Virus genome (UHGV): UHGV-0179428
Reading direction: 5' to 3' (one strand)
Length of the DNA: 64,000 nucleotides
From: a virus
This document shows positions 4,575 to 52,552 of this stretch, one piece after another (positions within the stretch are counted from its first letter, which is position 1; each line of letters begins with the position of its first letter). Made by a program: the position numbers and the translations under genes. The notes beneath the pieces were generated by a model. The model did no database searches. It saw only the letters and a program-made list of their open reading frames with translations, and had not been told where the DNA came from.

Positions 4575-7062
4575 TTTTTACTCCTTCGTTATACACCGCA
4601 GGCAATGTCACCCCTTCCGGTTCGATGACACAGTACGATGCTTCATTAAGTTTAGAATGAACCTCGGCTTCGTGGGAGACTACCAACAGTTGAGAAAATT
4701 CTCCCGAGTTTGCTAACGTTTTAATAAAGCCGACCAGGTTGTTACGGTGCTCCTCATCCATACCTTCCGAAGGCTCATCCAAAAGCAATGGAAACTGATG
4801 CAACTTCAGCGCTTTGTACGCGGTCAGCCTGAACATCAGATTAAATATCGCACGCTGCGCCTTAGACCCTTTACGCACGTCAGGAACAGGCTCAGGATGC
4901 GTTTTTAGCTGGACAGGAAAAGTATAATCCAAATCACCGTCAGTGAGATCGCAAGGCATGACGCGCATGGGGTACGTCCAGACCTGTTCGATATAACGCG
5001 TCATTAACTCTGTGATTCTAACGATAGCGTTGTAAAAATACTTTCTAAGCACACCCTTTTCTGGCGAGAAGGCTTGAATCATCAGTTTGTTATTGAACTG
5101 CTGGGCTTGCAAGTCAGCAAGTTCGCGTTCCAAACTGTTGAGCTGATTCAATTCATTTTCCATCTGACGATAACGTTCGCGTGCGGTTGTAAAAGCATCC
5201 AGCTTCCCTTCTCGTGCACGTAAGAGTTCCTCGACGACTGTATTTGTCAACGTAACCTTAACATCACTCTCTAACCGTTCGAATAACGCACTGAAATCAT
5301 CTACAGCACGTTTAACATTCACCAGATAGGTAAGTGTCGTGTTAGCCAGTTCGTGCTCTCTACGACGCATTGAGAGCATCTCTGTGGCTTTACCTAATCG
5401 CGACTGTTGGAAAGCGATTTTCTGTTGTAAAGCACCATCGACGTTACCAACGGCCGCTACGGCATCCTGCCATTCTTTTTCCGCTTTCACTAACCGTTGT
5501 CGGGTTTCATGGTACTCAATAGCAGAGTACAACTCACTGTCAAACGCTGCGCATAGGCTCCCGAACTGCTCGCGTGATTCTGTGAAAACGTTACGTTCTT
5601 GCAAACGCTTAAAGAACATGCTCAATACCGGGTCCTTTGAATACGTCAGTACAATCTCACGAACCTGTCGCATATAAGTTACATCGGATTCTAACTCAAC
5701 ACGATCGCGTAATAGGGCCTCTAACTGCGTTTGTAGTTCCGTGCGCTGCTGTTGTTGTCCGCGAATCGAAGACTCAAGTTCAGGTAAAGAACGTGTAACA
5801 CCAGGCCGAAACTTAAACCGACACTGCGGACAATCCACTTCTGCTGTTTCTAAGTAGTGATTACGCTCATGATTTAAATTCTGTAAAACGTTCTCCACTC
5901 GCTGGAGTCTATCCCGCAACCCTGCGGTTTTTTGATCCATCACCAGAAGCCGTTCTTCCAAAACATTGAGTTTTTCGGTTGAATGAATTGCGTCCAGTGT
6001 TGTTCCTAACCGTTGCCCCCAGACACGCGCATCGGTAGCCGCACGAAGTTGGTCTAAATTGACGTTGTCGTTAAATAGACCCGGAAAGAGATGCTCGGTG
6101 TCCCATTTGGTAAGTAACTCACGTAAACGTGCCAGCGTATTCTTGAGACCTTCGTGATTCCGCATCAGGTAGTCTTGTCGTGTCGACTCATCCATTAATA
6201 ACGACAAGTCTTTATTCAACATCGATACCTCTGTTTCAGTAGAAACAACAGCTTCGCGGGCGGTCGCTTCGTTTTGTCGCGCGACCAGTATCTGTTCATC
6301 AGTAGGCAATCCACCACGATGTTGTAATATTGCGTCGATGGTTGGACCCAAGCTGTTTAATAACGCTTGGATTGTTTCGATGGTGACGGCACGATTTAAT
6401 CCTGGCAACTGTTCGATTTCTCGGTTCAGTTCACGTAAATCCGATTCCAAACCTTTTAATCTCGTCGCTAACTGCTGCCGTTCTTCCTCGTTCTCAATAA
6501 CGCGCGTCCGTAATTCGGCGATCTTACGGCTGGTGATTTCAATACCCCCATTTAAAGCAGTAAGGTTTTTACGCAAACGTTGATAAAACCCTAACGCGTA
6601 AGTGAGGTCAGAGGTACTTAAACGGTAAAACCACTTGCGGCGTAGTTCGGTTCCCGCGTCAGTTAACAACACCTCACCATTTAATAGTTCTTTAATCTCT
6701 TTCGTAATACCCGTGATTTCTTCAACACGGGAGTTGTAGACTTTCGCATTACCTTGCTCGACGATCTTTGTCCCCGTGGTCAAGTTCTCAATATCACAAA
6801 CCAGTGAGTTGCCTTTACGGGCAACTTTGAATCGATAGCGTTGATCGCCAACTAAACAGTAGTTTGTGTAAGAACCTCCGTCCCTGAATTCGGTTTTAGC
6901 CGGTGCTAAGGGTAAGAACACAGACAGTAGACTGGTTTTCCCGCAGCCGTTCCCACCCAGGATAATTGTTGTCGGTGACTGGATAGTGAAATCGAAGGTT
7001 TCAATTTCATGTAACCCCATCCCCGTAAAACCTTTGAGTATAATGCGTTCAACTTTTAGCAT
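4558..7062 (-). CDS. SMC/Rad50/SbcC-like ATPase with coiled coil
   Basis: ORF track 4558-7278; preferred ATG at 7062 after GGAGGTG; N-terminal Walker A GGNGCGKTS, long central coiled-coil region with CPQC, C-terminal Walker B LLLDEP and VVSHE. Confidence 0.7.
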   Translation of the reverse strand: MLKVERIILKGFTGMGLHEIETFDFTIQSPTTIILGGNGCGKTSLLSVFLPLAPAKTEFRDGGSYTNYCLVGDQRYRFKVARKGNSLVCDIENLTTGTKIVEQGNAKVYNSRVEEITGITKEIKELLNGEVLLTDAGTELRRKWFYRLSTSDLTYALGFYQRLRKNLTALNGGIEITSRKIAELRTRVIENEEERQQLATRLKGLESDLRELNREIEQLPGLNRAVTIETIQALLNSLGPTIDAILQHRGGLPTDEQILVARQNEATAREAVVSTETEVSMLNKDLSLLMDESTRQDYLMRNHEGLKNTLARLRELLTKWDTEHLFPGLFNDNVNLDQLRAATDARVWGQRLGTTLDAIHSTEKLNVLEERLLVMDQKTAGLRDRLQRVENVLQNLNHERNHYLETAEVDCPQCRFKFRPGVTRSLPELESSIRGQQQQRTELQTQLEALLRDRVELESDVTYMRQVREIVLTYSKDPVLSMFFKRLQERNVFTESREQFGSLCAAFDSELYSAIEYHETRQRLVKAEKEWQDAVAAVGNVDGALQQKIAFQQSRLGKATEMLSMRRREHELANTTLTYLVNVKRAVDDFSALFERLESDVKVTLTNTVVEELLRAREGKLDAFTTARERYRQMENELNQLNSLERELADLQAQQFNNKLMIQAFSPEKGVLRKYFYNAIVRITELMTRYIEQVWTYPMRVMPCDLTDGDLDYTFPVQLKTHPEPVPDVRKGSKAQRAIFNLMFRLTAYKALKLHQFPLLLDEPSEGMDEEHRNNLVGFIKTLANSGEFSQLLVVSHEAEVHSKLNEASYCVIEPEGVTLPAVYNEGVKIVYAN

Positions 7063-8750: not shown

Positions 8751-9161
8751 TTAAATTTTAAGTTTATCCATAGCTACAACGATAGGTTTTTCCGAAGTGT
8801 CTAATATCCCTACCATTGGCACACCATCTACGACTTCGAAGAATGGTTTGTTATTACCAGAGCACAGACGTTTGTCGTTGTATTCGAGACGCTGGGCCTT
8901 CCACGTTTCGAGGTTGAGTACGGACATTGGGCTGTCGTAGCACCAGGCACCACCCTGCTCAACGATGAATACGTATCTGCTACCTTTGTATTTAAACAGA
9001 CTCTTTGCCTGACAGTACAAGCCGTCGATTTCCGTACAATAGAAATCATCGGTGCTATTGACGTACTTAATATTGTCTGGCAACTGTATTGTTTTTGCTG
9101 TAGTGTTGACAGAGAATAGAACAGCCATTGCAATGAGGAGAGTATTAATGATAGTTTTCAT
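8751..9161 (-). CDS. secreted protein with signal peptide, hypothetical
   Basis: ORF track; N-terminal MKTIINTLLIAMAVLFSVNTTA; TAAGGA RBS. Confidence 0.7.
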   Translation of the reverse strand: MKTIINTLLIAMAVLFSVNTTAKTIQLPDNIKYVNSTDDFYCTEIDGLYCQAKSLFKYKGSRYVFIVEQGGAWCYDSPMSVLNLETWKAQRLEYNDKRLCSGNNKPFFEVVDGVPMVGILDTSEKPIVVAMDKLKI

Positions 9162-9172
9162 GATAAAAGTCC

Positions 9173-9658
9173 TTAGTATTTAGATTGTTCTACGTACTTC
9201 TTAACCAGGTAAGCGAATTCGGCAACACCGATATCACCGAACCAAATCAGATAACCGGGGTCGATGTTGTAGTAATAGCCGACGAGTTTCTTGGTGTGTG
9301 GGTTGTATAGCGTTACGATGTATTCCCAACCACAAGCGTTAGCTTTACAACCGCCACTTTCAATCCAGATTTTGTTGTTGATGTTTACCGGATACATGTT
9401 ACCGCCAGGGCCATCCATGTAACCTTTAGAGCCGAACATACCATCCAGCCCCACAGGGTCTAATGTTTTATCAACAACGGCTTTAAACGACTTATCGGTA
9501 TCGTACAAGTCGTTGATGTTTGGGCACGCATTTGGCTGACCTTCCCAAGCGTTTCCATCACAGGTAAGCAGTTCGTCTACGGAGGCCGCATCTACACTTG
9601 GTGTGGCACCGATAAACAAGAAAACCAGAAAGAACATCAGTGTGTGTAAACGTTTCAT
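9173..9658 (-). CDS. secreted protein with signal peptide, hypothetical
   Basis: ORF track; N-terminal MKRLHTLMFFLVFLFIGATPSVDA; AAAGGAG RBS. Confidence 0.7.
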   Translation of the reverse strand: MKRLHTLMFFLVFLFIGATPSVDAASVDELLTCDGNAWEGQPNACPNINDLYDTDKSFKAVVDKTLDPVGLDGMFGSKGYMDGPGGNMYPVNINNKIWIESGGCKANACGWEYIVTLYNPHTKKLVGYYYNIDPGYLIWFGDIGVAEFAYLVKKYVEQSKY

Positions 9659-9676
9659 TGTAACTACTCCTTTAGA

Positions 9677-10063
9677 TTATTCGGCAGGACGATTTAAGGT
9701 AACGCGTCCGATTAATTCGGCGTTGTGAAAGAAGTCCACAGCGGTATAGTTACCAACTGATAGCGGATGGATACTAACTGACATTACCTTTGGTTGTTCG
9801 CAAGCGATATCCGTCAGACGTTGGTAGACTTGTGCACGGGTGTCAGCAATGAGTAATCCCGTACACGTTTCACCACGCACTAAACGATAAACTTGCAGTT
9901 TACCGAAACTGCGCATTAACGTAGGCGTCTCGTCCGGGTTGATAATCGGTGAGTCAGGAGCCGGTTCGTAATAGCGGACATCCGAATCACCGAAAGCATA
10001 AGTGCCAGTAATTCCGACTGCACAGAAAATAATGATAGTATAAAGTATAGTTCTGATATTCAT
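9677..10063 (-). CDS. secreted protein with signal peptide, hypothetical
   Basis: ORF track 9677-10069 (GTG); ATG at 10063 gives MNIRTILYTIIIFCAVGITGTYA signal-like N-terminus. Confidence 0.6.
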   Translation of the reverse strand: MNIRTILYTIIIFCAVGITGTYAFGDSDVRYYEPAPDSPIINPDETPTLMRSFGKLQVYRLVRGETCTGLLIADTRAQVYQRLTDIACEQPKVMSVSIHPLSVGNYTAVDFFHNAELIGRVTLNRPAE

Positions 10064-10091
10064 TTTCACGCACTCTAAAAAAGATTAATAG

Positions 10092-10553
10092 TTATTTGTT
10101 AGGACGGGTGTGTCCACAGTTCTGGAAGAAAGTTTCAGACAGACGTTCGCCTTCTACGGTAAAGTTAGCGGCATCGTTACCATTGATACTCACACTGAAA
10201 GTTTTGGCATTACCGATAGCATTAACGAAAGCAACCCAAGCGTGTTCTGCTTTGTCACTACCGTCCACGGTAGGGATGTTATAGGTTTTGCCGTTTACGA
10301 CAATATCCATCGTGTTATCTTCAGCGTTAGTTGCACCTACGGGTTCACCGTAATACCAGACCATGCGACCGTAAAATTTGCGATTCGCAGTTTCAGTGTC
10401 ACAGTTGATAGACAGTCCGTTTCCGGCGGTGTCTTCAATTTCGTAAACTGCCTGGCCAGGGTTTTGTATTTGTTCCCAGCTGTTGATAGCGGCGTGTGCA
10501 GTATTGAGGCCGAAAGTTAAAATGGTTATTAAGAAAGTGATAAAGGTTTTCAT
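10092..10553 (-). CDS. secreted protein with signal peptide, hypothetical
   Basis: ORF track; N-terminal MKTFITFLITILTFGLNTAHA; AAGGAG RBS. Confidence 0.7.
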   Translation of the reverse strand: MKTFITFLITILTFGLNTAHAAINSWEQIQNPGQAVYEIEDTAGNGLSINCDTETANRKFYGRMVWYYGEPVGATNAEDNTMDIVVNGKTYNIPTVDGSDKAEHAWVAFVNAIGNAKTFSVSINGNDAANFTVEGERLSETFFQNCGHTRPNK

Positions 10554-10599
10554 TGAAATGCTCCTTCGGGTTATGGGGAAATTCCCACAAATTATGAAA

Positions 10600-10971
10600 T
10601 TAAATAACTGTGTTGGGTAATGCTTTAATCTGTGTATAACTATCTCCGATACCTCTTATCATTTCCAGACGCTCTTCTGTAGAAAGGCTTTGGTTAATGT
10701 CTTTGTCAAGATTGAACAGTGTCAAGAGTTTTGCAATTGCAACCGTCAGGTTGTCGGACAGCTCGTTGTTTTTACGCCATTCTTCGTTACGGAAAATAGA
10801 GATAAGGTCTTTCGCCTGGCCTTCAGCGTGTGGTTTGGCTAACTGCGCGTCACGCTGTTCGATAAGGTATGCTTCGTTAGTAAGTAAACGTTTCAGGTTT
10901 TCTGGGTTAGTGGCAGCGCGAGTAACGATCATTAATACAACAAACGGGTCTTTAAATAATTCGTTTTTCAT
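10600..10971 (-). CDS. hypothetical protein
   Basis: ORF track; TTTTAGGAGAACTAAAG-ATG; preceded by conserved promoter-like leader module. Confidence 0.7.
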   Translation of the reverse strand: MKNELFKDPFVVLMIVTRAATNPENLKRLLTNEAYLIEQRDAQLAKPHAEGQAKDLISIFRNEEWRKNNELSDNLTVAIAKLLTLFNLDKDINQSLSTEERLEMIRGIGDSYTQIKALPNTVI

Positions 10972-10979
10972 CTTTAGTT

Positions 10980-11050
10980 CTCCTAAAATGGTTTTAGTTA
11001 AGTGAGTGCTTTTGTACTCTCACCTAAGTAATATATATCTGAAATTATTT
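10980..11050 (-). promoter_or_regulatory. conserved promoter-like motif plus 5' leader hairpin (copy 1)
   Basis: Motif TAAGTAATATATATCTGAAAT (plus strand) next to 11-bp-stem hairpin TTAAGTGAGNG-loop-CTCTCACnTAA and AGGAG RBS; about 80 nt nearly identical to 48075-48150. Confidence 0.5.
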
Positions 11051-11063
11051 TTAATATTAACGA

Positions 11064-11097
11064 ACAAAAAAATAAAAGGTGGGGGTTTACCCCCACC
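11064..11097 (-). terminator. rho-independent terminator
   Basis: GGTGGGGG-ttta-CCCCCACC hairpin then T tract on minus strand. Confidence 0.65.
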
Positions 11098-11101
11098 GAT
11101 G

Positions 11102-11680
11102 TTATACATCGAACCGGTACTGCCGGGAGTTAATGAGGAATTCGGTATTCAGCTCAATCCATTCGAGTAAATCACCCAACGGTAATCGGTTTGGGTTTTC
11201 TAACTCAATAGACGCTACCGGATAAGAGTTTACTAATTCCGTAATTGCCTCAATACCCTCTTGCGTTCCGTCGTCTTCTAAGGTGATTGTAAACGGCATA
11301 TCGGTACGTCCCGCATTAGGATTGTACAAACTGACTTTCGTTGCTTGCACAAACGCAGTCAGGTCGTCTCGCATAATGCGAATATCCGGCGCTAGAACCA
11401 CCCAGAGATGTTGCCCTGGCTGGAGTTTACGTTTTGCGTAATTTAAGAAAGGACTTGCCGTCAAGTTCTCTAAACTACAACAGATGTTACGTAAATGGAT
11501 TCCGCGTGGATCTTTGTAATCCACGTCGAAAATCCCCACAGGTTCATTCGCTGCCTGTTTTATCAGAAAGGCTAATACCGTGTCCGCTCTTTCTGGTAAG
11601 GAAAGCTCTATTCCCTCAAGCTCCCCATCGACGAGATTTTCTAACCAAACGTCTTTTCGCATTTCTATTAATCGGTACAC
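11102..11680 (-). CDS. hypothetical protein
   Basis: ORF track; GTG start after GAGGTGG. Confidence 0.65.
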   Translation of the reverse strand: MYRLIEMRKDVWLENLVDGELEGIELSLPERADTVLAFLIKQAANEPVGIFDVDYKDPRGIHLRNICCSLENLTASPFLNYAKRKLQPGQHLWVVLAPDIRIMRDDLTAFVQATKVSLYNPNAGRTDMPFTITLEDDGTQEGIEAITELVNSYPVASIELENPNRLPLGDLLEWIELNTEFLINSRQYRFDV

Positions 11681-11692
11681 GGTTCCACCTCA

Positions 11693-12466
11693 CTAATAAT
11701 TAAGTTTTACATCGGCAATAAACAGCAACTGTTTACCGTGTTGCTGCACTTCTTTCCAACCTAGCTTCATAGCAGCGTCAACAACATCTATCATGCTGTA
11801 ACGAGACATCAACGCGGTTGATTTTGTTCCTGACATTAAGTAAAGCGGCTCGTTGGGGCAACGGTCGCGTGCATCAGGAAGTTCCCGAGAGACTGCTGAG
11901 CCTTCGGGTACGGTAACAACATGAATCACGGTAAATGGTCTTTTGTGGGTTAAATAAATACGAAACCCAACGTGTTCAGACTCATGAAAGACTTTTTTCA
12001 CAACCACATCTTTTAGTGTCGTCTGAACATCAATCCCAGGTAATATCATGGATTCGCGAGAAACAAAACAACGACTATTTTCAACCGTGGAGAAATAATT
12101 ACGTATCGGCAAACTGGCGTTATGATCGTGCAGTTTTTTGCTCAGTAGATCGAAGTTCAGTTCTTTAACTTTCTCTAGCCATTCTTTGGCTTGTTGTATG
12201 TAATAACTACCAACGGTGCGATAAGTCAATACCTTACCTGTGCTTACTTTCCAAAGTTTAACGCTTAGTGAATTCGGCTTATAGCGACGATACTCACCCC
12301 GCGTATAGTTGATGCGCTCGTAACGCTCTACATCGTCAACGGGCGCAGATTCGATCGATTGTAATTGCAACGTACGATCTAATCTATCGGCGAATAGTAG
12401 TGATGTTAGCGGACCTTCGATCAAATACGGTTCGGTTTTAAAGATATCATCTAGATGGATTTTCAT
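11693..12466 (-). CDS. hypothetical protein, member of C-terminal GW..QLLF module family
   Basis: ORF track; AAGGAAATAGAA-ATG; C-terminus KLGWKEVQQHGKQLLFIADV shared with neighbours. Confidence 0.75.
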   Translation of the reverse strand: MKIHLDDIFKTEPYLIEGPLTSLLFADRLDRTLQLQSIESAPVDDVERYERINYTRGEYRRYKPNSLSVKLWKVSTGKVLTYRTVGSYYIQQAKEWLEKVKELNFDLLSKKLHDHNASLPIRNYFSTVENSRCFVSRESMILPGIDVQTTLKDVVVKKVFHESEHVGFRIYLTHKRPFTVIHVVTVPEGSAVSRELPDARDRCPNEPLYLMSGTKSTALMSRYSMIDVVDAAMKLGWKEVQQHGKQLLFIADVKLNY

Positions 12467-12533
12467 TTCTATTTCCTTCTTAACAAAAGCCGCGACTAAA
12501 GCGCGGCAGTTAGAGAAAGTGTATTTTCACTTA

Positions 12534-13685
12534 TTAGAGGTCAGCAACAAACAACAGCTGACTGCCGTATTTTTGCACGTCAGCCCAACCGTAGTCTTTC
12601 CCGATTATAGGTAGATGTAAAGCATCCAGCTTCTCGTCTTTCGCCTTCAGTTTCGCCATTAACGCATTGGACTCCTCAGCACTGAGCAGTAATGCGGGTT
12701 CTTTTTCAGTACGTCCTTCTGCGGTCGGGAAGAAATCGTAATAGCTGCGAGTAGGTAAATCGACAGAAAAACTACGATTGCCTATTGTGATGAAGAACGC
12801 AACTCCTTCACAGTTAGCGTCTACACTACACGACCACCCCGCCTCTGTTAAAAGGTCTTTTAACAGACACCACACTTTAAGTTGGTTCTTAGAAAGTGTA
12901 CGGTAAATAGCAAGATGGTCAGGAAGTAAATGCACACCCATAACCACGTTTTCAGATTTCTCGTCAAGCAACTCTGGATGTTGAATCGGGAATAATAATT
13001 CACTGATACCCACGCTATCAATTTTGTTAACAAAATCAGTTAATTCATCTTTTAAGGTACGCACGGATTTTTCTCCTTCGACTTCAATAATCTGGTGGGG
13101 TTCGCCGCTAATTAAAATGTGGTAAACGATATCGTCGGTAGAACGGTAAGTGAGTTTGATAGCTTTATCACTTAACATTTCGTAGCGGAAGAAACTTTCG
13201 TACCAAGTTGACCCGAAATCGTTTCGTGTAAGTTCCTGCTCAACTTTGATGGTTTTTGCTTCAAAGCCGATTAACCCGCTTAATAACGCGAGTTCTGGTT
13301 TAGTTAAAATGTCCGCGCCGTGAAAGGGCACTTTCTCAAGCTGAAGACATAAATTACTGACTTTACCACTTGGGAAGACCTTAAACATAATCTTCCGGCT
13401 GCTACTCTTTTCCCTAACAACGAGTTTACGGTAATTTAGTCCACAATTTGTGTAAACCGCGAACTTGTAACCTTCAATTTCTTCATCGTAAGTACAGACA
13501 TCGACAGGCGCGATAATCTCATTGTATTCAGTAAGTACACAGCAGCCCAAGTTATAACCAAACAACTCACGTTGTAATGAAGACTCGATGGTTAAGCTTG
13601 GTAGCGACCAAGTCCGATTATAGCATCTGTCCATCAGTTCTTTTAGGATTTTGACATGTCCCGGTTTAGAAATAATATTTCGCAT
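12534..13685 (-). CDS. hypothetical protein, member of C-terminal GW..QLLF module family
   Basis: ORF track; CCTAAAGGAGAGTAAAA-ATG; C-terminus DYGWADVQKYGSQLLFVADL. Confidence 0.75.
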   Translation of the reverse strand: MRNIISKPGHVKILKELMDRCYNRTWSLPSLTIESSLQRELFGYNLGCCVLTEYNEIIAPVDVCTYDEEIEGYKFAVYTNCGLNYRKLVVREKSSSRKIMFKVFPSGKVSNLCLQLEKVPFHGADILTKPELALLSGLIGFEAKTIKVEQELTRNDFGSTWYESFFRYEMLSDKAIKLTYRSTDDIVYHILISGEPHQIIEVEGEKSVRTLKDELTDFVNKIDSVGISELLFPIQHPELLDEKSENVVMGVHLLPDHLAIYRTLSKNQLKVWCLLKDLLTEAGWSCSVDANCEGVAFFITIGNRSFSVDLPTRSYYDFFPTAEGRTEKEPALLLSAEESNALMAKLKAKDEKLDALHLPIIGKDYGWADVQKYGSQLLFVADL

Positions 13686-14298: not shown

Positions 14299-15036
14299 TT
14301 ACGCGGTTTTAATTAACAGCAGATAGTCCTTCGTAATCTCAGCACAACCCCACCCTCTCATCGCGGCGATTTTACGAAGATCAATTTTCTCGTGATATTT
14401 CAATAAGGGATCATCTGAGTTAATCTCAACCAGGTGGGTGGCTTTAGAAATCGTTTCTACATCAGGGATCTGTTTTGCTAAGTCTGATGCAATTAACTCG
14501 ATGATACGGTATCCCTCTAACACAGAAACATAAATGCGTAAACCATATAGCGTGCCCTCGTCTTCTAATGGACAAAGATCGATGCCGGGTCCAAGCAGTG
14601 ATAACTCGACGTTATCGGGAAGGTTTTCCGCATTTCGGAGTAACCCTATCCCATTTCTAAACAGAGGGAAGTAAGAGAATAGTGGTGGTAAAGCCCAACC
14701 GTTCCCAATAAGCACATCGGCGATACTAGTAGGTGTGTTCGCAAGGAGACGAATGTGGTCAGCCACAACTTCAAGTTCGGCGTCACTGATCAACTTATAG
14801 ATTAACATGACACTGGTTTCGGTATTAATAACAAAGAAGACGCGGTTGGCGTAACTGCCTATCACGTATTCGTCAATCATACAGTCGATAACGTCACTGT
14901 CTGGATAATCTTCAGGTTTAATTGTTCCAGCATCGATTAACTTAGCAGGTTGCGATTGTTTTATTAGTTCGTTAACCACCGTAGAAGAAAGTTCTAAACT
15001 GGTGTTGGTAAAGATATCGTCTAGTAATTCTCTCAT
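14299..15036 (-). CDS. hypothetical protein (degenerate C-terminal GW module)
   Basis: ORF track; weak RBS; C-terminus MRGWGCAEITKDYLLLIKTA. Confidence 0.6.
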   Translation of the reverse strand: MRELLDDIFTNTSLELSSTVVNELIKQSQPAKLIDAGTIKPEDYPDSDVIDCMIDEYVIGSYANRVFFVINTETSVMLIYKLISDAELEVVADHIRLLANTPTSIADVLIGNGWALPPLFSYFPLFRNGIGLLRNAENLPDNVELSLLGPGIDLCPLEDEGTLYGLRIYVSVLEGYRIIELIASDLAKQIPDVETISKATHLVEINSDDPLLKYHEKIDLRKIAAMRGWGCAEITKDYLLLIKTA

Positions 15037-15278
15037 GATTTACTCGCTAATCCCAAAGAAGGGAAGGCTATTATTATGGATTGTAAAGGAGGTATAAGGA
15101 AGTCACTACGTTCCTCTGGGAAGAGTATGTCGGTATACTCCGTATACCTCCGCTATTTATATCCGTATACATAATGCCCCCTACCCCCTACCGGTATCCC
15201 GAGTAGCAGAATAAAGGGTCATAATGTAATTTTTTAGTAACCTTTAACGAAAGGTACTAAAAGGGTAACGTGTCCGTA

Positions 15279-15332
15279 GGGACTGAAGTACCAGTTCAGT
15301 CCCTATTCACTTAAGTAAAATATATCTGAAAT
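15279..15332 (-). promoter_or_regulatory. conserved promoter-like motif plus hairpin (copy 4) in divergent intergenic region
   Basis: GGGACTGAA-gtacca-TTCAGTCCC hairpin followed by CACTTAAGTAAAATATATCTGAAAT. Confidence 0.4.
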
Positions 15333-15357
15333 CAATTCCGATCTAAGGAACGTCCCG

Positions 15358-16323
15358 ATGGAGAAATCCAGTGTTGATTTTTTCTCAATTGGTATCGTCG
15401 CGGAAGACAAACCCCGTGGTACAGATCGGGTAAAAGTGATACCAATTGAAACCAACTTTGCTAACCCTACCGTGGTGCAATCTGTTTCTTCAGCAACTGA
15501 AAAGACGCATGAAACATCCGGTGCAACAGATAACCTAACCATTAAGACGGGAAACACGATAACAGCAAAGTGGTGGAAGTTTAACTCCAACCGAATTAAT
15601 TCCCCTGACGTTAAACGAGAAGACTACGTTATCTTGTTACGTTTGGGGAAAACCGATATTTATTTTTGGATTGATCTGAACTTCGCTAACGTTAAGCGAT
15701 TAGAAGATGCGGTTTATGCGTGGTCGGCTGACCCTGAAAACCAAATGGCGGATGACTTGTCCAATGCGTATGTGTTGAACGTTTCGACGATTGACAAACA
15801 TATCACGCTAAGAACGAGTATGGTGAATGGCGAGAAAGCGGCGTGGTTGTTTCAGTTTGATAATGCAAACGGTACGTGGCAGTGCGTTGACCATAAAGGA
15901 AACAAGTATTACATTAACTCGGTTGAAGATGATCTCGGGTTTGAGAATGCGATGCTTTCAAAAGTGAACATCAACAAAGAAGATGCGTTCATTTATTCAA
16001 AGCGTTCTATTAACCTGGAAACGAAAACGATTAATGAAAAATGCGAAGTCCGCAATACGGAAGCAGCGAGTTCCGTTACGTTTAAAACACAAACCTGGTT
16101 AACAGAAGCGGGCAGTTCGACAACGTTTAAAACGCCGAACTTTAAACAGGAAGGGAAGGAAGCGATGTTCACCGGTAATTTGGAAGTCGCTAAGAACTTC
16201 AAATACGGTGGTACGGGTGAGGGTGTGGGTGTCTTTACGGTTAAAGATGCCATTATTTCCGGTATTACCTTTAGCGTTCACATTCACCAAGGTAAACATG
16301 GCCCGACATCACCTCCGCAATAA
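15358..16323 (+). CDS. putative baseplate central spike / beta-helical fibre protein with C-terminal HxH apex
   Basis: ORF track; AAGGAACG RBS; C-terminal beta-strand-like repeats ending in SVHIHQGKHG, reminiscent of metal-binding spike tips. Confidence 0.35.
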   Translation: MEKSSVDFFSIGIVAEDKPRGTDRVKVIPIETNFANPTVVQSVSSATEKTHETSGATDNLTIKTGNTITAKWWKFNSNRINSPDVKREDYVILLRLGKTDIYFWIDLNFANVKRLEDAVYAWSADPENQMADDLSNAYVLNVSTIDKHITLRTSMVNGEKAAWLFQFDNANGTWQCVDHKGNKYYINSVEDDLGFENAMLSKVNINKEDAFIYSKRSINLETKTINEKCEVRNTEAASSVTFKTQTWLTEAGSSTTFKTPNFKQEGKEAMFTGNLEVAKNFKYGGTGEGVGVFTVKDAIISGITFSVHIHQGKHGPTSPPQ

Positions 16324-18121: not shown

Positions 18122-21100
18122 ATGGCTGTCGTCCTAGACCCACACTTCAAAAAACCGGGGAATAAAATAACCGGTGAAGCGGTCGCCGTCATTGGTACGA
18201 AATACCGAATGTTGGTACCTGCCCACGCCCCTTTTTTCACCACATCCCTGGTGGTCAAGAGCGGCGGCAAAACACTGACCTTAGGCGACGATTACATTAT
18301 TACACACCCGTACGAGACCGGTATGTTGCGCACAGCCTATCTCATTCACGGGATGATTTGGATTGTTAATGACAAATACAAATCGAATTTTACGGTAGAT
18401 TACCACGCCGTTGGTTGTGGTCAGGCTACCCAACAACAGATTACCGCAGAACGCGAACTCAATAAAGATAAATACCCGACTACGTGTCAGTGGGACACCG
18501 TCATCGGGGACGTTTACTTTCCGCCGGTCGATATCCAGTTCGATTGGGAGAATTGGAAAGGCGAACTGGAGTTAATGCAGGCTATTGCTGGATTAGGCGA
18601 TTCGTTAGGGGAAGTCGTGAGTCGACTTAACCCCATCGCACGCAATACCCTGGATTTAGAATACCGTGCTAACAGCAAGGTTATCACTTCCGAGCAGTAT
18701 GCCGTATACGACAATAAAGGTGGTTTCACCTACAACACTACCCGTCATCGTTATAGCTTGAGTTATAAAACTGCAACCTTTAACGACTACGTCCTGTCCG
18801 TGAAACACAGAATTCCTGCTATTCTGCCAGACATGACGAAATTGAATCCAAACGAACAGATCGATTGGATGCTCTGTTATGCTAACGGCGGTGCAAGCAT
18901 TCTACGGTTGCAGCTAAAACAGCGCAAAATCTCACTGGTCTTAACGGTCGCTATTGGCAGCGGTTCAACAAACTACGATTATACGTTAATCAACGGTTTA
19001 ACTGACGATGAGTTAAAAAACGATATCGATTTTAGTGTAACCCGTCAACCCGGAAACGGTGTTTACGTCATCGTAGTAAAAACAAATAAACAGACCATGG
19101 ATTACACATTCAACGTCGATACGCCGCCTGATGAGTTCTCGGCAGGGTATTCGAAAACGGATGTTGCTAAATGGTTGAAGTTTAAAACGAACATTAATCT
19201 AAACTGGTATGCGGCCGAAAACGATTATATTCAAATTCGTTCTTTACCCGGCGCACCAGAACCTGACGTCGATAATGATGTTTACCAGTTAATAGTCAAA
19301 TACCATCAGTTAGTTGAGCAGCTGTATCGTAACGCGCCTGCACACGAACACGTTACACGTAAGGACAACCCGCACACCGATACGTGGGGACCGATCCGTG
19401 CGTTAGAGCTGAATGGTATTGCGTCGGATGCCGCGTTAGCTTACGGGAAAACGAAACAGCAGTTAACGGATTACGTTAATGCTAAGTACCCAACACAAGC
19501 AACGTTAACCGCACAGAAAAAACTGCTTCGTGAATCGGCGAGCAAGAACGTTAACGGCACGATTACCACACTTCCGGGTTTTACTTCGTTCACGACGGAA
19601 GTTGATCCGGTTTCGATGTCGAAATACGTGAGTCCTTATTTTAGCGAAAGCTATGTTAGTAGTGGTCACAGATATCACGGCGCGCTTCGTTACACAGGAA
19701 CGAAAAGCGGTTTCAGTGCTAACTTTAATGCGGTGCCTGCCAACCTGCAAGATATTGACTTTATTGTTACTGGACGTAAAACAGCGTCTGGTAATGAAGC
19801 GGTCGGTAGGGTTGGTTTACGTTTCTACCAAAATCCTGGTAGTAACTCCGGTAAGTACGTAGAGATTACCGGTGAAATCTGGTCCGGTACTCTTACTATC
19901 GAACTGGCGTTGCACGGTTACGGTAGTCCGGTACCGGCAGTTCGGTATATTTCACAAGCTCCTAACCCGGCAATACCGGATGGGGATTTTACGCTACGTT
20001 TTCAACTGAAGCGTACAGGGAATGTGTTTGACGTCGTTATTACCGTAAACAGTAAAACGTATAGCGGTCGGATTAACTTCAATAACATGGACGCTGCGTT
20101 AGAAGCATTAGAGAATCAGCACCACTTTAAATCGCTGATTAATAATGTTGCCGACGCCGTTACCATTAGTTCGCAAAACAAAGGTAACACAGTTACCATT
20201 AAGAAAGCACCGGATGTTGTTGACGAGACACGTTTAGGCGCTCAGTTTGTCGTTGATCCGAAATCCATTAAGTTCATCGGTCAAGGTTCTACTGATGTTA
20301 ACGTGGGTAACAACCCCGTAACGTTCCAAGCAGGTACTAACCAGCTTGTGCTATACCCCGATGACCGAGGATTGTTGTGGCGTGGTAAAAAACTCTTAGA
20401 CCCCACCACCGTAGCCCCGTATCTGCCAGGCAATACCGCAGGTGGTACAGGTTTATTCTACGCAAACTCGACAACAACGGTTACGATCACCGGTAGCGGG
20501 ATAAAAGCCTCGCCGTTCGTAGCGACCTTTATTCTTCCTACCGCGACCGATACAACAGCTCTGGCGGCTTGGCAGTTGACCGATGAGTTTGGTACCGCTG
20601 AAAACCTTGCAGCAACGCCAGCACTGATTGAAAAACTCGATGCGGAGTTCACCGGTAAGTTAGTTGCAGTTAAATCGTACATTAACGACATGCAACTTAC
20701 CAGCTCGGTTACTATCGATAAGATTACCTTTGGTTTAGGTAATGTTGCGAATACGCCTGATGTTGATTTACCGATTTCTACAGCACAACGTGCGGAGTTA
20801 GATAAATACTCGCCTAAAGTTCACCAACACCCGTTTACCGCTTTTGGTACAGGGAACGCAACCACAGCGAAACGTGGTCTGATTAAATTTGGTCTGGATG
20901 TGGATGATGCGACTTTAGCACTCGATGGGAGTGTGGTAATGGCGCAGACTTCCCAGATTGAAAAATTGGAGCGCGCTGTCAGCGGTGTTGACTCGGAGGC
21001 ACGTCTTGACATTATACGTTTTGGTGAGTCTGGTAACGACTTAATAGACCTTACGGTCAAAGACAAAATTCTGGTCACGCTTCCAGCTTCAACGTATTTT

Positions 21101-22444
21101 ATCGGTGGTGAAACATACGACGTTCCGTTGATGACGATTAACGTCAGTGAACGTTTTCCGAAATTGAATACAGAAATCTACGCAGGGATTTTTGTTGATA
21201 TTGTTGACAACAAAGCGAAGTATATTGTCCATGACAGCTACAGTCAGGCTGAAACGGATACCATGACGCGTGTAGGGTTGATTGGTGTTAACGACATTTC
21301 TGAGGTGTTCGTTACGGAGATGCGTAATGTCACACGGTTGGGTGATTTCCGTGAACTGAAAGATCATAAAGCCGATGACAACGCACACATTCAGCGCTCC
21401 GCGTCACGTGCAGCGCTTGGGTTAGCTAACTTAACCGTAGGCGCGCCTTGCTGGGCTTCTGGACTCCAGGCAGTAGTACGCGGTGAAGCAGATTGGCGTT
21501 ATGTTGCCGGTGGGCAGTATAAAGCTTTAGACGGGGTGAAATACGACCAACTCGCATCAAAGTGGATTTTTGACGCGAAAGGGGTAAGCGATAACCTACA
21601 CGGGTTTATCCACAACATGTTCCCAGCTTTTAAGAACGCAGGAATGCGGGTAAGTTGGGAAACAGAAAGCAACGCAAAAACCGGCACGGTGTTAGAAACT
21701 GTTTTAGGTTGTTGGAAAAACACCGACGGCGAGTTTATGCGGTTGTCGTTACTTATCACTCGTGGTTATCGTTTAACTGACAGCAATGGTGAATATTGTT
21801 ACGCAGGGTTCGGTTTGAACTTCGGTAGCGGGAAATCGGTAGTGGTAGGTTTCACACCAACGAAGCGTGTTACGCCTGCACCGTGGAATACGTTACAACC
21901 TGACGTAACGTTTACCCACACCCGTGCTGCAAACAACGCAATAACGTTTAACGCAACACTGACCTTAGCGGGCACTACGTATACCATCGTGGTGTTTTTA
22001 TCTGCGACAGATAAATACGTAAGCTGCACGGCAGCAGGGGGAGCTACGCAGAAAATCCCTCTAACTGACCGTTTAACAGGGTTCAATATCGCACCTATCG
22101 TTAACGATCCGTATACCCCTATTTACTACGGTTTAGGGGGACTTTATGAGGATGAGGTTCGTGCCAACATCCGTTCTACGGCAGACAGCGCAACCTCGAA
22201 TAAAGTCTATGGTACGTTGTTAGACTATATTAGCAACTATTCCTCATTAAATCGTGTGCGCGTTATGGAATTGACCGGTGTCAGTTCAGACCCCGAAACG
22301 CTTAATGCGTTAGTGGCAACTGAATTTAATAACAACCTGGCGGATTACGCTGCGTTACCGATACCTCCTTATCTTAACAAGGAGCGCGTAATGTCGTTTA
22401 TCGACACCAACAATAAAGTGCAGGCGGTAATCATTCGCGATTAA
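18122..22444 (+). CDS. giant tail fibre / receptor-binding-like protein 1 (1440 aa)
   Basis: ORF track; AGGAGTAGAGA-ATG; N-terminal region shares the PFF...GDDY module with the next three genes. Confidence 0.7.
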   Translation: MAVVLDPHFKKPGNKITGEAVAVIGTKYRMLVPAHAPFFTTSLVVKSGGKTLTLGDDYIITHPYETGMLRTAYLIHGMIWIVNDKYKSNFTVDYHAVGCGQATQQQITAERELNKDKYPTTCQWDTVIGDVYFPPVDIQFDWENWKGELELMQAIAGLGDSLGEVVSRLNPIARNTLDLEYRANSKVITSEQYAVYDNKGGFTYNTTRHRYSLSYKTATFNDYVLSVKHRIPAILPDMTKLNPNEQIDWMLCYANGGASILRLQLKQRKISLVLTVAIGSGSTNYDYTLINGLTDDELKNDIDFSVTRQPGNGVYVIVVKTNKQTMDYTFNVDTPPDEFSAGYSKTDVAKWLKFKTNINLNWYAAENDYIQIRSLPGAPEPDVDNDVYQLIVKYHQLVEQLYRNAPAHEHVTRKDNPHTDTWGPIRALELNGIASDAALAYGKTKQQLTDYVNAKYPTQATLTAQKKLLRESASKNVNGTITTLPGFTSFTTEVDPVSMSKYVSPYFSESYVSSGHRYHGALRYTGTKSGFSANFNAVPANLQDIDFIVTGRKTASGNEAVGRVGLRFYQNPGSNSGKYVEITGEIWSGTLTIELALHGYGSPVPAVRYISQAPNPAIPDGDFTLRFQLKRTGNVFDVVITVNSKTYSGRINFNNMDAALEALENQHHFKSLINNVADAVTISSQNKGNTVTIKKAPDVVDETRLGAQFVVDPKSIKFIGQGSTDVNVGNNPVTFQAGTNQLVLYPDDRGLLWRGKKLLDPTTVAPYLPGNTAGGTGLFYANSTTTVTITGSGIKASPFVATFILPTATDTTALAAWQLTDEFGTAENLAATPALIEKLDAEFTGKLVAVKSYINDMQLTSSVTIDKITFGLGNVANTPDVDLPISTAQRAELDKYSPKVHQHPFTAFGTGNATTAKRGLIKFGLDVDDATLALDGSVVMAQTSQIEKLERAVSGVDSEARLDIIRFGESGNDLIDLTVKDKILVTLPASTYFIGGETYDVPLMTINVSERFPKLNTEIYAGIFVDIVDNKAKYIVHDSYSQAETDTMTRVGLIGVNDISEVFVTEMRNVTRLGDFRELKDHKADDNAHIQRSASRAALGLANLTVGAPCWASGLQAVVRGEADWRYVAGGQYKALDGVKYDQLASKWIFDAKGVSDNLHGFIHNMFPAFKNAGMRVSWETESNAKTGTVLETVLGCWKNTDGEFMRLSLLITRGYRLTDSNGEYCYAGFGLNFGSGKSVVVGFTPTKRVTPAPWNTLQPDVTFTHTRAANNAITFNATLTLAGTTYTIVVFLSATDKYVSCTAAGGATQKIPLTDRLTGFNIAPIVNDPYTPIYYGLGGLYEDEVRANIRSTADSATSNKVYGTLLDYISNYSSLNRVRVMELTGVSSDPETLNALVATEFNNNLADYAALPIPPYLNKERVMSFIDTNNKVQAVIIRD

Positions 22445-22457
22445 GGAGAATTTTTTG

Positions 22458-25400
22458 ATGAAAGCGTATCCTTACGATCCTCGGGGGACGAAAGCCGAGA
22501 ATCACTTCTTAGAGGAGCGTATCATCGGGTCAGAGAACAACAACGATCGGGTGGTGATTTTAGACCACCGCCCGTTCTTTGAAGATTTGGTCGTCAGACA
22601 ACCAGGTTCAACCACCCCACTGAGTCGTGGGGTGGACTACGAACTGCAATATCAGCTGACGGAACTGGATGACTCGGTAGCAGCCAACGTGTATTGTGGG
22701 GTACACCTTATCAACCCATCCATCAAGGGTATCGTAACCTTTGAAGGACAAATGCTCGGCGGTACGTTCTACGACCCGTTTGTTGATATTCTCGATGAAC
22801 TGGTGAAATATTTGAATAACCCAGTCAGTGCTGACTGGTTGTTATTAGACGGTAGACCATCGTTATATCCAGCGACGCCAGCAGCAACGTCCTGGGCGGA
22901 TTTGCTGAACAAAAAATATTTAGCGTCGGCAGTTCACGACATTGAATTGAAAACCGACGACGCTAACCAATTAATTAAAGACAAATTAGCTGAAGTTAAA
23001 GCGTTAGTGACTGCGTTGGGTAAAGAAATCGAAGCATTTAACTACCCAGCACATATCGCAGCGAAGAACCCGCACGAAACCACATCCGCGCAGATTAACG
23101 CGCATCCTGTTAACTTGAAAACCCCCGACACCTTTATGGCGTACGGGTTAAAGTTGAAAGCACTGACGGATGAGCTGAAAGCGTTTCGTTTACCCCAGTC
23201 AGTTATCGACACGTATATCTCTCACTGGATTTCTTCGGAAGTACGGGGCGTGTTTAACTGTACGGTGTCAGGAAACCGCGCACAGTTCCGTTCGAAAAAC
23301 GGTGAGTCAGAAATCATTTTTGCCAACGATGGCTTTACGTTAAAATCCAACGGTTCTGTGGTATTAGCGGTAGGACATCTGGAAGGCACAGGTGCAGGAC
23401 GTTACATTAATTGGCGTGCTGGTAAAAACACCTTACGTATCGAGTCAACCGGCGATGCTTTAGGGATGAACAAACTCACCCTGAATGGTAACCCGTTACT
23501 GACTACCACAGCTTTGATGGAATACCAACAAGATCCTGATGCTGGCGGGAGCGGCGGCGGTGATCCTGATGACTCGAAGGTGTACATCGAAGGCCGTAAT
23601 GGGATTAGCTTCACCGGTAAAGGCTCTCGGACCGATCCTATCGTGGGTACTATCGACCCGACGAAAGCGACAACCGCTGAAAAAGGTGTTGTTAAGCTTA
23701 AAACTGGTAAAGGTACAGAAACGGTTGGGGTTGCAGCAACGCCAGCGTCATTAACACCTTATTCGACCGACCTATCAGGGTATGTGGCTAAAACGACCAT
23801 GATTAACGGTAAGCCAATGAATGACGGCTCCAGGACAATCACGAAAGCTGACCTGGGGTTAGGGCAAGCGGATAACACCGCAGACCTTGACAAACCGTTG
23901 TCAACCGAGTTAACTAAGGCGGTTAGCGGTCTAGCAGATGTAGGCCATCATCACGATTGGTCGGAGTTAGGCATTTATAAAGCTTCTCAATCTGTTTACG
24001 GTATTGGTCGTTATGCAACTAACCAGAACGGTTTGGTTGAAAACCGTGCAGTGGTACCGAACATCTTAAAAGAGCTTTCGGCACGTTTAAGTGTGGTCGC
24101 TGCGGCAATTGCAAATGCGAAAGAAGGAACAGTCACGGATTTCGCTGCTGTAAAAGGCGCAGACTGGCGATTTAATAGCCAGGGTACGGCAATCTCCGTT
24201 CAGGATTTGAAATATTTCTATTTGCTGGACGGCACGAAAGGTGACAGTACCGTTACCGGTGCGATTGACCTGCAAACCACCCCGATGTTTAACTGGTTCT
24301 CACCGAACAACCAACTTGAGCTGACTTGGGCTACGGGTAAGGTGAGTAACGGTACGGGAATCAACTGGACGGGTATTGAAGAACCGCCATTGATGGGGTT
24401 CCAGTCTGTCCCGGTAGGTAAGACTGCTACACAGATGGGTGACCAGTCAGTTGTTACTGTATTGGCAAAAACGCGTGTAAAAGCATACCAACCGAAGCTC
24501 TGGGTTTATGCTGCTGGGGGTGGTCCGGTTACGGTTTACATTAACGGTATCCAGGCAGCCACAGGCCAGTCTCCACTCGTCGCGGTGTATGAAACGTCGT
24601 CAGACGTTGAAAATTACACAGTGGCGGTTAAAGCCGAGTGTAGCGACACGACTAAATCCGCAGCGGTACAGTTCGAAGTTTACGATGGTGACTACCCCGT
24701 TTATTTCAGTGGCCCTGAAACGCGCGTAGAGCTTCTCCAGGAGTTTGTTACAACGCACGTAGGGGTTCGTCACTATTTGTACGTTAACATGCTCACAGGC
24801 TCTCTGTATTCGCGTGCTGAACCGATTCAGAGTATTGCCGTCGACCCAGAACGCGGTTATATCGGTTATGTTGATATCGTTCCTGGTCAGTCTTACGCGA
24901 ATAAAACTGTGGGATTTGAAACCACGTTTGATTTCGGGAAAAGTGCGGAAGTTAGCGAGCACATCAGCACTCGTAAGGCACACGGTCTCAGCGCTGTTGA
25001 CTGGGCGTTAACGGATAACCCACGGTTGCCGTTATTAAACCGTGCTATTGCTGAACCAAGAGCGTGTATCTTTAGGAAACCGTTAGCAACCGCTACAGGG
25101 GATGTTTTCCATCTTGTCAGTCGTGGCCTTTATACCTACGCACACAACCAAAACGTGAAGTCGAGTCTTCAATACGTTGTGATACCTGAAGGTGCTACGC
25201 CGTATTGTTGGTTTACACCATTTAACCCGAAAGAAAACAACGCACCGACATTCGAAGGCTCGTTTGCGTTCGATGTTGACGATGTTGGTGGAACGCAAGC
25301 CCTTGCTGCTGCGCCGGATTTGGTTCTATGCACGTCAACGCAAGGTAGCAGCGTTAAACGTCGCTATCTGCGCATTGACCTAACTACCAAAACCTGTAAG

Positions 25401-26639: not shown

Positions 26640-26675
26640 GACAGACTGCCTGCGGGCAGTTGTGTGTCCGTAGGT

Positions 26676-26714
26676 AACCCCTCCCTGTAATGGGGAGGGG
26701 TATCCATTTTATTT
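26676..26714 (+). terminator. rho-independent terminator
   Basis: ACCCCTCCC-tgtaat-GGGGAGGGGT hairpin followed by T-rich tract. Confidence 0.6.
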
Positions 26715-26733
26715 AAAAGTAGGAGTCTTTACG

Positions 26734-47574: not shown

Positions 47575-48069
47575 TTAGAGATGTTTTCCGATAACTTCCG
47601 AAACTAATTCGTAAAGGTCATCGTCACTGCACAAGTCTACACTAATCCCAATGTCGATGCTACGGCTGCGGAATCCCACTTTCACCACTTTACCGAGTTC
47701 GGTTTGTAGGGCTTTATAGAGTCTATTCTTATCTTCTTCAGTGAGAGGAACGGGTAGCCTAACGGTGAACTTGTAATGTTCTTTCGAAACAAGCTCGTTG
47801 GAATAATTAAGTCGTTTGGCTACTTGCGTTCCGACAATCTGTGTTACCAGCTTAAACATTTCTTCGTCACTATACGGTGTTGCGCCATAACCGATATCAA
47901 TAGAATTTCTACGGAAACCTGCGCAGAACAAAGCACCGAACTGCTCACGGAATTCTTTGTGTAGAATATCTTTTTCTACATCCAACAACCCGTAACCCAA
48001 GTCAACAGTGAATTTGTATTTTTCTTTGTCAACTAATTCGTTAGTGTAATCAAGTCTAGTGAAGTTCAT
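47575..48069 (-). CDS. hypothetical protein with internal tandem duplication
   Basis: ORF track; two about 80-aa repeats (NELVxKExYKFTV...GFRxxSIDIG...DxxLxxLV); preceded by conserved leader module. Confidence 0.7.
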   Translation of the reverse strand: MNFTRLDYTNELVDKEKYKFTVDLGYGLLDVEKDILHKEFREQFGALFCAGFRRNSIDIGYGATPYSDEEMFKLVTQIVGTQVAKRLNYSNELVSKEHYKFTVRLPVPLTEEDKNRLYKALQTELGKVVKVGFRSRSIDIGISVDLCSDDDLYELVSEVIGKHL

Positions 48070-48074
48070 GGTAT

Positions 48075-48150
48075 ATTCTCCTAAAATGGTTTTCGTTAAG
48101 TGAGAGCTTTTGTACTCTCACTTAAGTAATATATATCTGAAATTATTTTT
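48075..48150 (-). promoter_or_regulatory. conserved promoter-like motif plus 5' leader hairpin (copy 2)
   Basis: Near-identical copy of the 10980-11050 block upstream of an unrelated gene. Confidence 0.5.
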
Positions 48151-48151
48151 A

Positions 48152-52461: not shown

Positions 52462-52512
52462 TAATGGAGTGAACGTAAATTTCACTCTCCCCTAGGTAAT
52501 ATATATCTGAGA
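52462..52512 (-). promoter_or_regulatory. conserved promoter-like motif plus hairpin (copy 3)
   Basis: CCTAGGTAATATATATCTGAG with adjacent GAGTGAA...TTCACTC hairpin upstream of 51587-52438. Confidence 0.4.
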
Positions 52513-52552
52513 AAAAATAAAAAAGGTAGTAGGGGCTAAGCCCCTACTACCT
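52512..52552 (-). terminator. rho-independent terminator (strong 12-bp stem)
   Basis: GGTAGTAGGGGC-taa-GCCCCTACTACC hairpin flanked by A/T runs. Confidence 0.7.

Follow-up and report, generated by a model that had tools for sequence, protein, structure and literature searches.

The 64,000-nucleotide stretch of the viral genome UHGV-0179428 analyzed here (the window) carries three giant open reading frames (ORFs; 18122-31920) that encode virion proteins about 50% identical to those of the Salmonella phage SPN3US and to Erwinia Erskinevirus homologues, and ORF-by-ORF tblastn showed the window to be syntenic with SPN3US 101-176 kb. The sequences nearest to it come from IMG/VR, namely, two uncultivated contigs (225 and 221 kb) with 93-97% nucleotide identity; judged by its sequence, the window phage is a phiKZ-related, SPN3US-like jumbo phage belonging to a clade without a GenBank representative. 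Four copies of a promoter-like element, each followed by an inverted repeat, lie in the intergenic DNA of the window. Our results suggest, with a probability of roughly 0.78, that these repeats are early promoters for the virion RNA polymerase (vRNAP) of a phiKZ-related jumbo phage, with a hairpin at the start of the transcript, and that they are an element of a known kind.

The original prediction, made from the letters of the window, described four motif copies in one orientation, and this description held up. The pattern TAAGTAAWATATATCTGA, with up to three mismatches allowed, matches at 11025-11042 (site 1), 48123-48140 (site 2), 52493-52510 (site 3), and 15312-15329 (site 4), in all cases on the plus strand; the chance expectation for the window is 0.08 copies, and none of 100 dinucleotide shuffles reached four. 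A position-weight scan, with a matrix that is biased towards the 15-mer core by having been made from sites fetched with the exact 15-mer, and fuzzy regular-expression scans revealed no weaker or extra copies on either strand of the window. Non-coding DNA makes up 8.4% of the window and holds all four copies (chance probability, ~5e-5), a distribution at odds with a motif that occurs equally often inside coding regions. The motif points in the direction of the downstream minus-strand genes at every site, and strong intrinsic terminators stand immediately upstream of sites 1 and 3 (two of the four sites; Table 1).

Read on the minus strand, each copy consists of an A/T-rich tract, TCAGATATATATTAC, a hexamer (YTAGGT, YTAAGT, or CTAGGG), a G, and the inverted repeat. 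The core deviates at site 4 (TATATTTTAC), while the other three sites carry TATATATTAC; the orthologous site in one relative (L067) also has the canonical TATATATTAC. Numbered from the predicted start, the A/T-rich tract extends from about -35 to -22, the near-invariant TCAGATATATATTAC from -21 to -7, and YTAGGT from -6 to -1, followed by the initiating G. This arrangement corresponds to what has been described for jumbo phages with RNA polymerases of their own, in which a conserved AT-rich motif of about 10 nucleotides (nt) near -10 marks the early promoters of the virion enzyme (PMC7598289). The early promoter of AR9 reads AAATATATATTAT-(6N)-G+1, with early transcription insensitive to chloramphenicol, and in phiKZ and phiR1-37 the transcription start site lies 6 nt downstream of the consensus (PMC5312081, the source also of the phiKZ spacing that we used). 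On the basis of the spacing of the mapped AR9, phiKZ, and phiR1-37 starts (PMC5312081), the predicted starts in the window are the Gs seven bases after TTAC (Table 1); starts of this promoter class fall on a conserved purine, usually G, and a G occupies the predicted position in all four window sites and in all six SPN3US sites. A published table of predicted promoters lists TBYAWWWWWTTTCARRYAKATATTATYWAAGTGWA for N1M2, TATATTAC for phiKZ, and similar strings for OBP and 201phi2-1 (PMC7058600); the window motif can be aligned with them base by base. Early transcription of the phiKZ type is independent of rifampicin and of the host RNA polymerase (PMC7598289, PMC13282480), and the injected DNA is enclosed in a vesicle together with the vRNAP (PMC13282480; bioRxiv 2023.09.20.558163).

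The original prediction had also placed the hairpin, the ribosome-binding site (RBS), and an ATG in this order behind the motif. This part stood at sites 1 to 3, where the RBS and ATG follow short leaders of nearly equal length (Table 1), and failed at site 4, where a long untranslated leader precedes the first ORF (14299-15036). The early promoters of 201phi2-1 all precede hypothetical genes (PMC11512511). None of the 10 genes nearest the four window promoters contains a Pfam domain, and PHROGs and Pfam searches of the promoter-proximal genes returned nothing informative.

Table 1. Features at the four window sites and predicted transcript starts in SPN3US (positions refer to the window unless SPN3US is named)
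Feature	Position	Strand	Details
Site 1 upstream terminator	11078-11097	-	GGTGGGGGTAAACCCCCACC then T run; 8 pairs, 7 of them G-C; closes the unit ending with gene 11102-11680
Site 1 promoter	11022-11055	-	A/T-rich ATTAAAAATAATT, TCAGATATATATTAC at 11028-11042, TTAGGT; predicted +1 G at 11021
Site 1 inverted repeat/hairpin	10998-11027	-	UUAGGUGAGAG...CACUCACUUAA; -10.4 kcal/mol, z -4.0
Site 1 RBS and first gene	10600-10984	-	AGGAG at 10980-10984, ATG at 10971; 123 amino acids (aa); no Pfam domain; leader 50 nt from predicted +1
Site 2 promoter	48120-48153	-	AATAAAAATAATT, TCAGATATATATTAC at 48126-48140, TTAAGT; predicted +1 G at 48119
Site 2 hairpin	48096-48125	-	12-bp inverted repeat UUAAGUGAGAGU-ACAAAA-GCUCUCACUUAA; -16.3 kcal/mol, z -6.3; from +1 on (GAGAGU/GCUCUC), -8.3 kcal/mol, z -3.1
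Site 2 first gene	47575-48069	-	164 aa; no Pfam/PHROG match; leader 50 nt from predicted +1
Site 3 upstream terminator	52524-52552	-	Strong; 13-bp stem and T run; ends the unit including gene 52558-53178
Site 3 promoter	52490-52523	-	T-rich tract, TCAGATATATATTAC at 52496-52510, CTAGGG; predicted +1 G at 52489
Site 3 hairpin	52466-52489	-	GAGAGUGAA-AUUUACG-UUCACUCC; 5' edge at predicted +1; -7.4 kcal/mol, z -1.4 in 34-nt context; -7.6 kcal/mol, z -2.7 folded from predicted start
Site 3 first gene	51587-52438	-	283 aa; no Pfam/PHROG match; leader 51 nt; RBS AGGAGG
Site 4 promoter	15309-15342	-	Variant core TCAGATATATTTTAC at 15315-15329, then TTAAGT; predicted +1 G at 15308
Site 4 hairpin	15277-15305	-	UAGGGACUGAA-CUGGUAC-UUCAGUCCCUA; from +4; -16.4 kcal/mol, z -3.7
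Site 4 untranslated leader	15037-15308	-	272 nt; nearly invariant block at ~15095-15225
SPN3US predicted +1 positions	56313, 65432, 94258, 114005, 165706, 223296

The same cassette recurs in other phages. When window positions 9000-13000 (around site 1, the sole stretch searched) were compared with GenBank phages, the promoter cassette was the only nucleotide match, and the matches lay in intergenic DNA of the Erwinia jumbo phages Asesino, phiEaH2, and Stratton. SPN3US contains six perfect copies of CAGATATATATTACYTAGGTGA, all on the plus strand, all intergenic, and each directly ahead of a gene; the 123-aa first gene of site 1 is a homologue of the SPN3US gene behind the copy at 223275. The first 50 kb of phiKZ hold seven copies of TATATTAC, every one followed by N5-TG(A/C), intergenic, and co-oriented with genes (7/7), one of them upstream of the nuclear-shell gene. 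An IMG/VR scan with the exact 15-mer returned at least 120 stretches. Among the matches listed, about 50 are unique sites with common flanks outside the query, namely, GATTAAAAATAATT upstream and YTAGGTGA plus the hairpin downstream; they are spread over at least 14 uncultivated contigs (205-246 kb). About half of the matches listed are chance occurrences in unrelated contigs whose flanks are not common to them; the sites L003, L036, and L055 were left out by hand. Full-text literature searches with TATATTAC or ATATATTAC alone yielded mostly noise.

A further intergenic motif of SPN3US, AGATAGATATTATCT, is related to the first, is present about 15 times (e.g., at 23810, 28969, 72486, 72684, and 184044), and fits the published N1M2/OBP consensus. 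The hairpins behind these copies are weaker or absent (mean z, -1.1), and the leaders are often shorter. Copies of AGATAGATATTATCT in SPN3US sit at positions roughly equivalent to those of window sites 3 and 4; the window itself has a single copy, at 2402 on the minus strand.

The presence of a stable hairpin beside each motif copy was confirmed at all four sites (Table 1), and for a broader view we compiled statistics for 62 non-redundant sites of the window type. Folds of the 35 nt that start at the predicted +1 had a mean z of -2.4 relative to dinucleotide shuffles, with z below -2 in 61% of the 62 sites, figures that overstate independence because many of the sites are related by descent. 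When folding began at -19, pairing with the AT-rich promoter spread the 5' helix edge over positions from -10 to 0; this was replaced by a test in which the first helix was taken and its maximal upstream extension was asked for. The 5' edge of the helix then coincided with the predicted +1 in 24 of 53 sites, fell at +2 to +4 in 14, and lay upstream of +1 in 15. Relative to the predicted start, the stems in the window begin at +1 at sites 2 and 3, at +4 at site 4, and, with a weak stem, at +3 at site 1. The predicted leaders cluster tightly in length (median, 51 nt), and 84% of them measure 40-65 nt.

Pairing in these stems is maintained across differing sequences. There are 41 distinct 7-nt arm sequences, and each pairs with its own partner arm at 5.58 of 7 positions, compared with a permutation mean of 5.21 (standard deviation, 0.08); none of 2,000 permutations reached 5.58. 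A compensatory change separates site 4 from its counterpart in the relative L121, where GGGACUGAA/UUCAGUCCC is replaced by GGGGCUGAA/UUCAGCCCC (A-U to G-C). No consensus structure emerged when RNAalifold was applied to 30 hairpin regions aligned with MAFFT, because loop lengths differ and the 3' arms fall out of register; the alignment-free permutation test was used instead. G·T pairs number 29 in the stems, and folding is better on the sense strand in 41 sites and on the antisense strand in 23; because of these pairs and this strand bias, an RNA structure on the transcribed strand is favored over a DNA cruciform. The hairpin is probably a 5'-terminal stem-loop on early mRNAs and possibly has a protective role. 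The stem-loop at +1 appears to be a structurally conserved addition specific to the SPN3US/Erskinevirus-like lineage; no published description of it was found in the literature searched.

The intergenic, co-oriented placement of the copies, their sharing of core and spacing with mapped promoters, and the position of the hairpin edge at the predicted +1 all support the proposal that the motif is a phage promoter whose transcript begins with a stem-loop, and we consider its identity as a promoter highly probable. The original prediction had left open which polymerase recognizes it, a question to which homology can offer an answer: by analogy with related phages, this is most likely the multisubunit RNA polymerase that phiKZ-related jumbo phages package in their virions, rather than an enzyme of the T4-type late or T7-type systems. 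T7-type promoters are conserved 23-bp elements (-17 to +6) read by a single-subunit RNA polymerase that the phage encodes. The SPN3US-like clade is known for multisubunit RNA polymerases, and SPN3US gp241 is the beta-N subunit of the virion enzyme, found to be head associated by mass spectrometry of amber mutants (PMC5105663). Both of the contigs with 93-97% identity to the window encode a homologue that is 76% identical to gp241. A Pfam search of this homologue gave no match, and its identity as a vRNAP subunit therefore rests on homology to SPN3US and the literature.

The proposed course of events is as follows. The injected virion polymerase would, very probably, recognize the element from -21 to -1, start at the G, and transcribe operons of small takeover genes; in the window, minus-strand transcription would lead into operons of small genes without assigned function. 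The first ~20-30 nt of the transcript would fold into a stem-loop that starts at the 5' end or a few bases behind it, followed by a uniform leader of ~50 nt and the RBS. In enterobacterial hosts, mRNA undergoes 5'-end-dependent decay by RppH and RNase E, and 5'-terminal stem-loops protect mRNA in Escherichia coli, as reported by Emory et al. (1992) and Deana et al. (2008). By analogy, the role that we favor for the stem-loop, as the simplest one and at a little less than even odds, would be hiding the 5' end of early mRNAs from RppH/RNase E decay.

Several points weigh against this interpretation, in addition to the relatedness of the 62 sites. The start site and the early timing rest on homology, with no transcriptome of an SPN3US-like phage found in the literature searched, and neither PMC5312081 nor newer literature searched yielded an in vitro demonstration that a vRNAP recognizes the motif or the identity of its specificity factor. 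The window contains no RNA polymerase genes, which are present in the near relatives. The exact 15-mer served as the retrieval key for the IMG/VR sites, and because they were fetched in this way, conservation inside the 15-mer is by construction. At sites 1 and 2, the inverted repeat reaches 6 nt upstream of the predicted +1, which implies either that transcription starts further upstream or that part of the palindrome exists in DNA only, and the transcribed part at site 1 is weak (-3.0 kcal/mol from +1 to +35; z of -1.35 for the whole 50-nt leader). Finally, some relatives have a -35-like GATT/TTGATT 17 bp upstream of TATATT.

This last feature bears on the possibility that the repeats are host sigma-70 promoters, in which TATATT would serve as the -10 box together with a weak -35 box, and the conserved flanks would be incidental or bound by a phage factor. 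TATATT does lie 7-8 nt upstream of the predicted start, the Erwinia-phage copies read TTGATT-N17-TATATT, GATT is modestly conserved near -35 in the weight matrix, and site 2 matches at 9 of 12 positions (TTAATA-16-TATATT). However, site 2 was the only one of the four to pass a permissive scan, and the window shows no enrichment of sigma-70-like sites (22 versus 26 and 39 versus 35 expected from shuffles of two regions); the full sigma-70 pattern (-35 TTGACA, -10 TATAAT, 16-18 bp spacing) was accordingly rejected, with one weak match in the four sites. The invariant TCAGA, TTAC, and GTGA are not known to be sigma-70 contacts, and a near-invariant block of 23 nt is far tighter than usual sigma-70 promoters. 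An identical core drives rifampicin-independent early transcription in phiKZ-type phages, whose DNA is in a vesicle with the vRNAP (PMC13282480; bioRxiv 2023.09.20.558163), and we regard host promoters as very unlikely. Promoters of the second, non-virion phage polymerase, of the middle or late class, seem just as improbable. Some 201phi2-1 genes that would be expected to be early have middle promoters (PMC11512511), but the mapped middle/late motifs differ from the window motif, are weak (in phiKZ, TATG and an AT-rich patch at -24; in AR9, AACA-N6-TA/G), and were not findable bioinformatically (PMC7598289), whereas the strongly conserved TATATTAC-type motif marks the early class in phiKZ, AR9, and 201phi2-1. 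Neither the tail-fibre gene nor the block of virion genes (15358-38711) has one of the four copies ahead of it. The suggested comparison with T4-type late promoters (TATAAATA at -10) was negative, the octamer being absent from the motif and occurring once in the window versus 3.3 expected.

The inverted repeats also raise the question of whether the element acts as DNA, for example, as a promoter with an N4-style DNA hairpin, as a cruciform, or as a site of recombination or packaging. A promoter copy coincides with a gene-cassette indel junction between close relatives, and relatives differ by a flip of the loop in the site 4 hairpin, as might suit such an element, but in a cruciform its G·T pairs would be mismatched (and A·C on the complementary strand), folding is better for the sense strand, and the copies keep a strict orientation to genes and a fixed distance to the RBS. 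Unlike those of N4, the hairpins are placed downstream of the -10-like box, and their loops measure 6-8 nt at the window sites and 3-12 nt elsewhere; we consider a role as DNA extremely improbable. Instead of shielding mRNA from decay, the hairpin could act in initiation or promoter escape, as an attenuator or small-RNA module, or as a tag for the exit of early mRNAs from the vesicle. The conserved bases from -6 to -1 fall inside the palindrome at sites 1 and 2, the SPN3US copy at 165685 has a hairpin and then a terminator-like stem with a T run before the gene, and the whole cassette is kept, including the length and sequence of the leader (AATCGACTATTAATCTAAAGGAG in SPN3US). Against this, stem sequences vary freely with pairing kept, and loops range over 3-12 nt, which speaks for a structure of a generic type and against a site bound by a sequence-specific protein; most hairpins have no U run behind them; and the lack of a hairpin in the phiKZ copies examined indicates that it is dispensable for vRNAP initiation in general. 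We regard these other roles collectively as unlikely. That the stem-loop is a functional tag of virion-polymerase transcripts, serving promoter escape in the early-infection vesicle or the hand-over of mRNA to ribosomes, is a more speculative idea that we think improbable; if it were true, promoter, hairpin, and ~50-nt leader would form one mobile expression cassette that is also a junction for swapping early genes.

Several further observations concern individual copies. In SPN3US 165685-165780, the 5' hairpin is followed by the terminator-like stem GGCTACCTTCGGGTAGCC and a T run ahead of the next gene; from its sequence, this copy would yield a ~55-nt transcript or an attenuator. The window segment 10567-11015, which holds the 123-aa gene of site 1 (10600-10971) together with its leader and 5' hairpin, is missing in a 93%-identical relative (L069), in which the site 1 promoter is joined straight to the next gene. 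In SPN3US (223275-223747), the homologue of the 123-aa gene stands behind a different copy. Promoter copies look like junctions at which early-gene cassettes are swapped.

The site 4 promoter adjoins the junction with an oppositely oriented baseplate gene (15358-16323). The nearly invariant block of its leader, ~130 nt long, is almost unchanged in the relatives L067, L075, and L121, the last of which has an overall identity of only 83%, and it shares 77% identity over 71 nt with SPN3US 161480-161549, which lies in the divergent gap beside the baseplate gene. The folding energy of the leader is -93 kcal/mol. Rfam returned no family at gathering thresholds for the whole window and, around site 4, only a sub-threshold chance match to U5. 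One possibility is that the leader constitutes a regulatory region or a non-coding RNA. In the site 4 hairpin, the loop (15288-15294) is reverse-complemented between relatives, reading CUGGUAC in the window and GUACCAG in L067 and L075, with identical 11-bp stems, a loop flip. L067 (~490-590) and L121 (~6190-6290) have a small ORF (MSTKK...), equipped with an RBS of its own, between this hairpin and the conserved block; it has been cleanly deleted in the window and L075. Elsewhere in the window, at 38791-40528 on the minus strand, three tandem paralogous genes of 176-180 aa each match a single SPN3US gene (138239-138766), and each is followed by its own G+C-rich terminator.

Our findings leave the current view of jumbo-phage transcription unchanged and place the promoter of the SPN3US-like clade in one family with those of phiKZ, AR9, OBP, and N1M2. 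The combination of TCAGATATATATTAC-YTAGGT-G, hairpin, and ~50-nt leader provides an annotation handle for the early host-takeover regulon of an uncultivated clade of jumbo phages of the nucleus-forming type. The lineage-specific 5' stem-loop leads to a testable idea about the survival or handling of early mRNAs in enterobacterial hosts, and the compact promoter-leader cassette is possibly useful in phage engineering.

Among the known systems, the early promoters of phiKZ share with the window type the core TATATTAC and N5-TGA spacing, the A/T-rich upstream region, the intergenic location, and the orientation with genes. The window motif, however, is longer and tighter (TCAGATATATATTAC-YTAGGTGA), the phiKZ upstream box TTTAAACAG is replaced by AATAATTTCAGA, and the hairpin at +1 is absent from the seven phiKZ copies (mean z of -0.16 versus -2.4; Mann-Whitney p = 6e-4). 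AR9 has ATATATATTA in common with the window type, as well as the G seven bases after an AT-rich, highly conserved motif that is sensitive to single changes (PMC5312081). It differs in its Gram-positive host, its uracil-containing genome, and the final base of the motif (T, versus C in the window type), and neither a conserved YTAGGTGA nor a hairpin has been reported for it (PMC5312081). The consensus of the Klebsiella phage N1M2, to which those of the Pseudomonas phages OBP and 201phi2-1 are related, agrees base for base in AWWWWWTTTCARRYAKATATTATYWAAGTGWA with AATAATTTCAGATATATATTACTTAGGTGAG (PMC7058600); these phages have TTAT where the window type has TTAC and allow G at the K position, and a hairpin is not mentioned (PMC7058600).

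Like 5'-terminal stabilizers of the E. coli ompA leader type, the stem-loop would lie at or near the 5' end, here a predicted one, and it keeps its pairing with variable sequence; it differs in being fixed to one promoter class and repeated as a cassette. In such stabilizers, the stem starts about 0-3 nt from the 5' end, and its removal shortens mRNA half-life in an RppH- and RNase E-dependent way. In coliphage N4, a single-subunit polymerase uses a DNA hairpin with a stem of 5-7 bp and a 3-nt loop upstream of the start, which requires the single-stranded DNA-binding protein SSB and supercoiling. N4 promoters and the window type, as interpreted here, have in common a virion-delivered polymerase, early genes, and an inverted repeat at the promoter. 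An N4-type hairpin promoter was nevertheless rejected on position (at or after the predicted start) and loop size (6-8 nt versus 3 nt): the repeat of the window type lies downstream of the -10-like box, its loops are long and variable, and its G·U pairs point to RNA.

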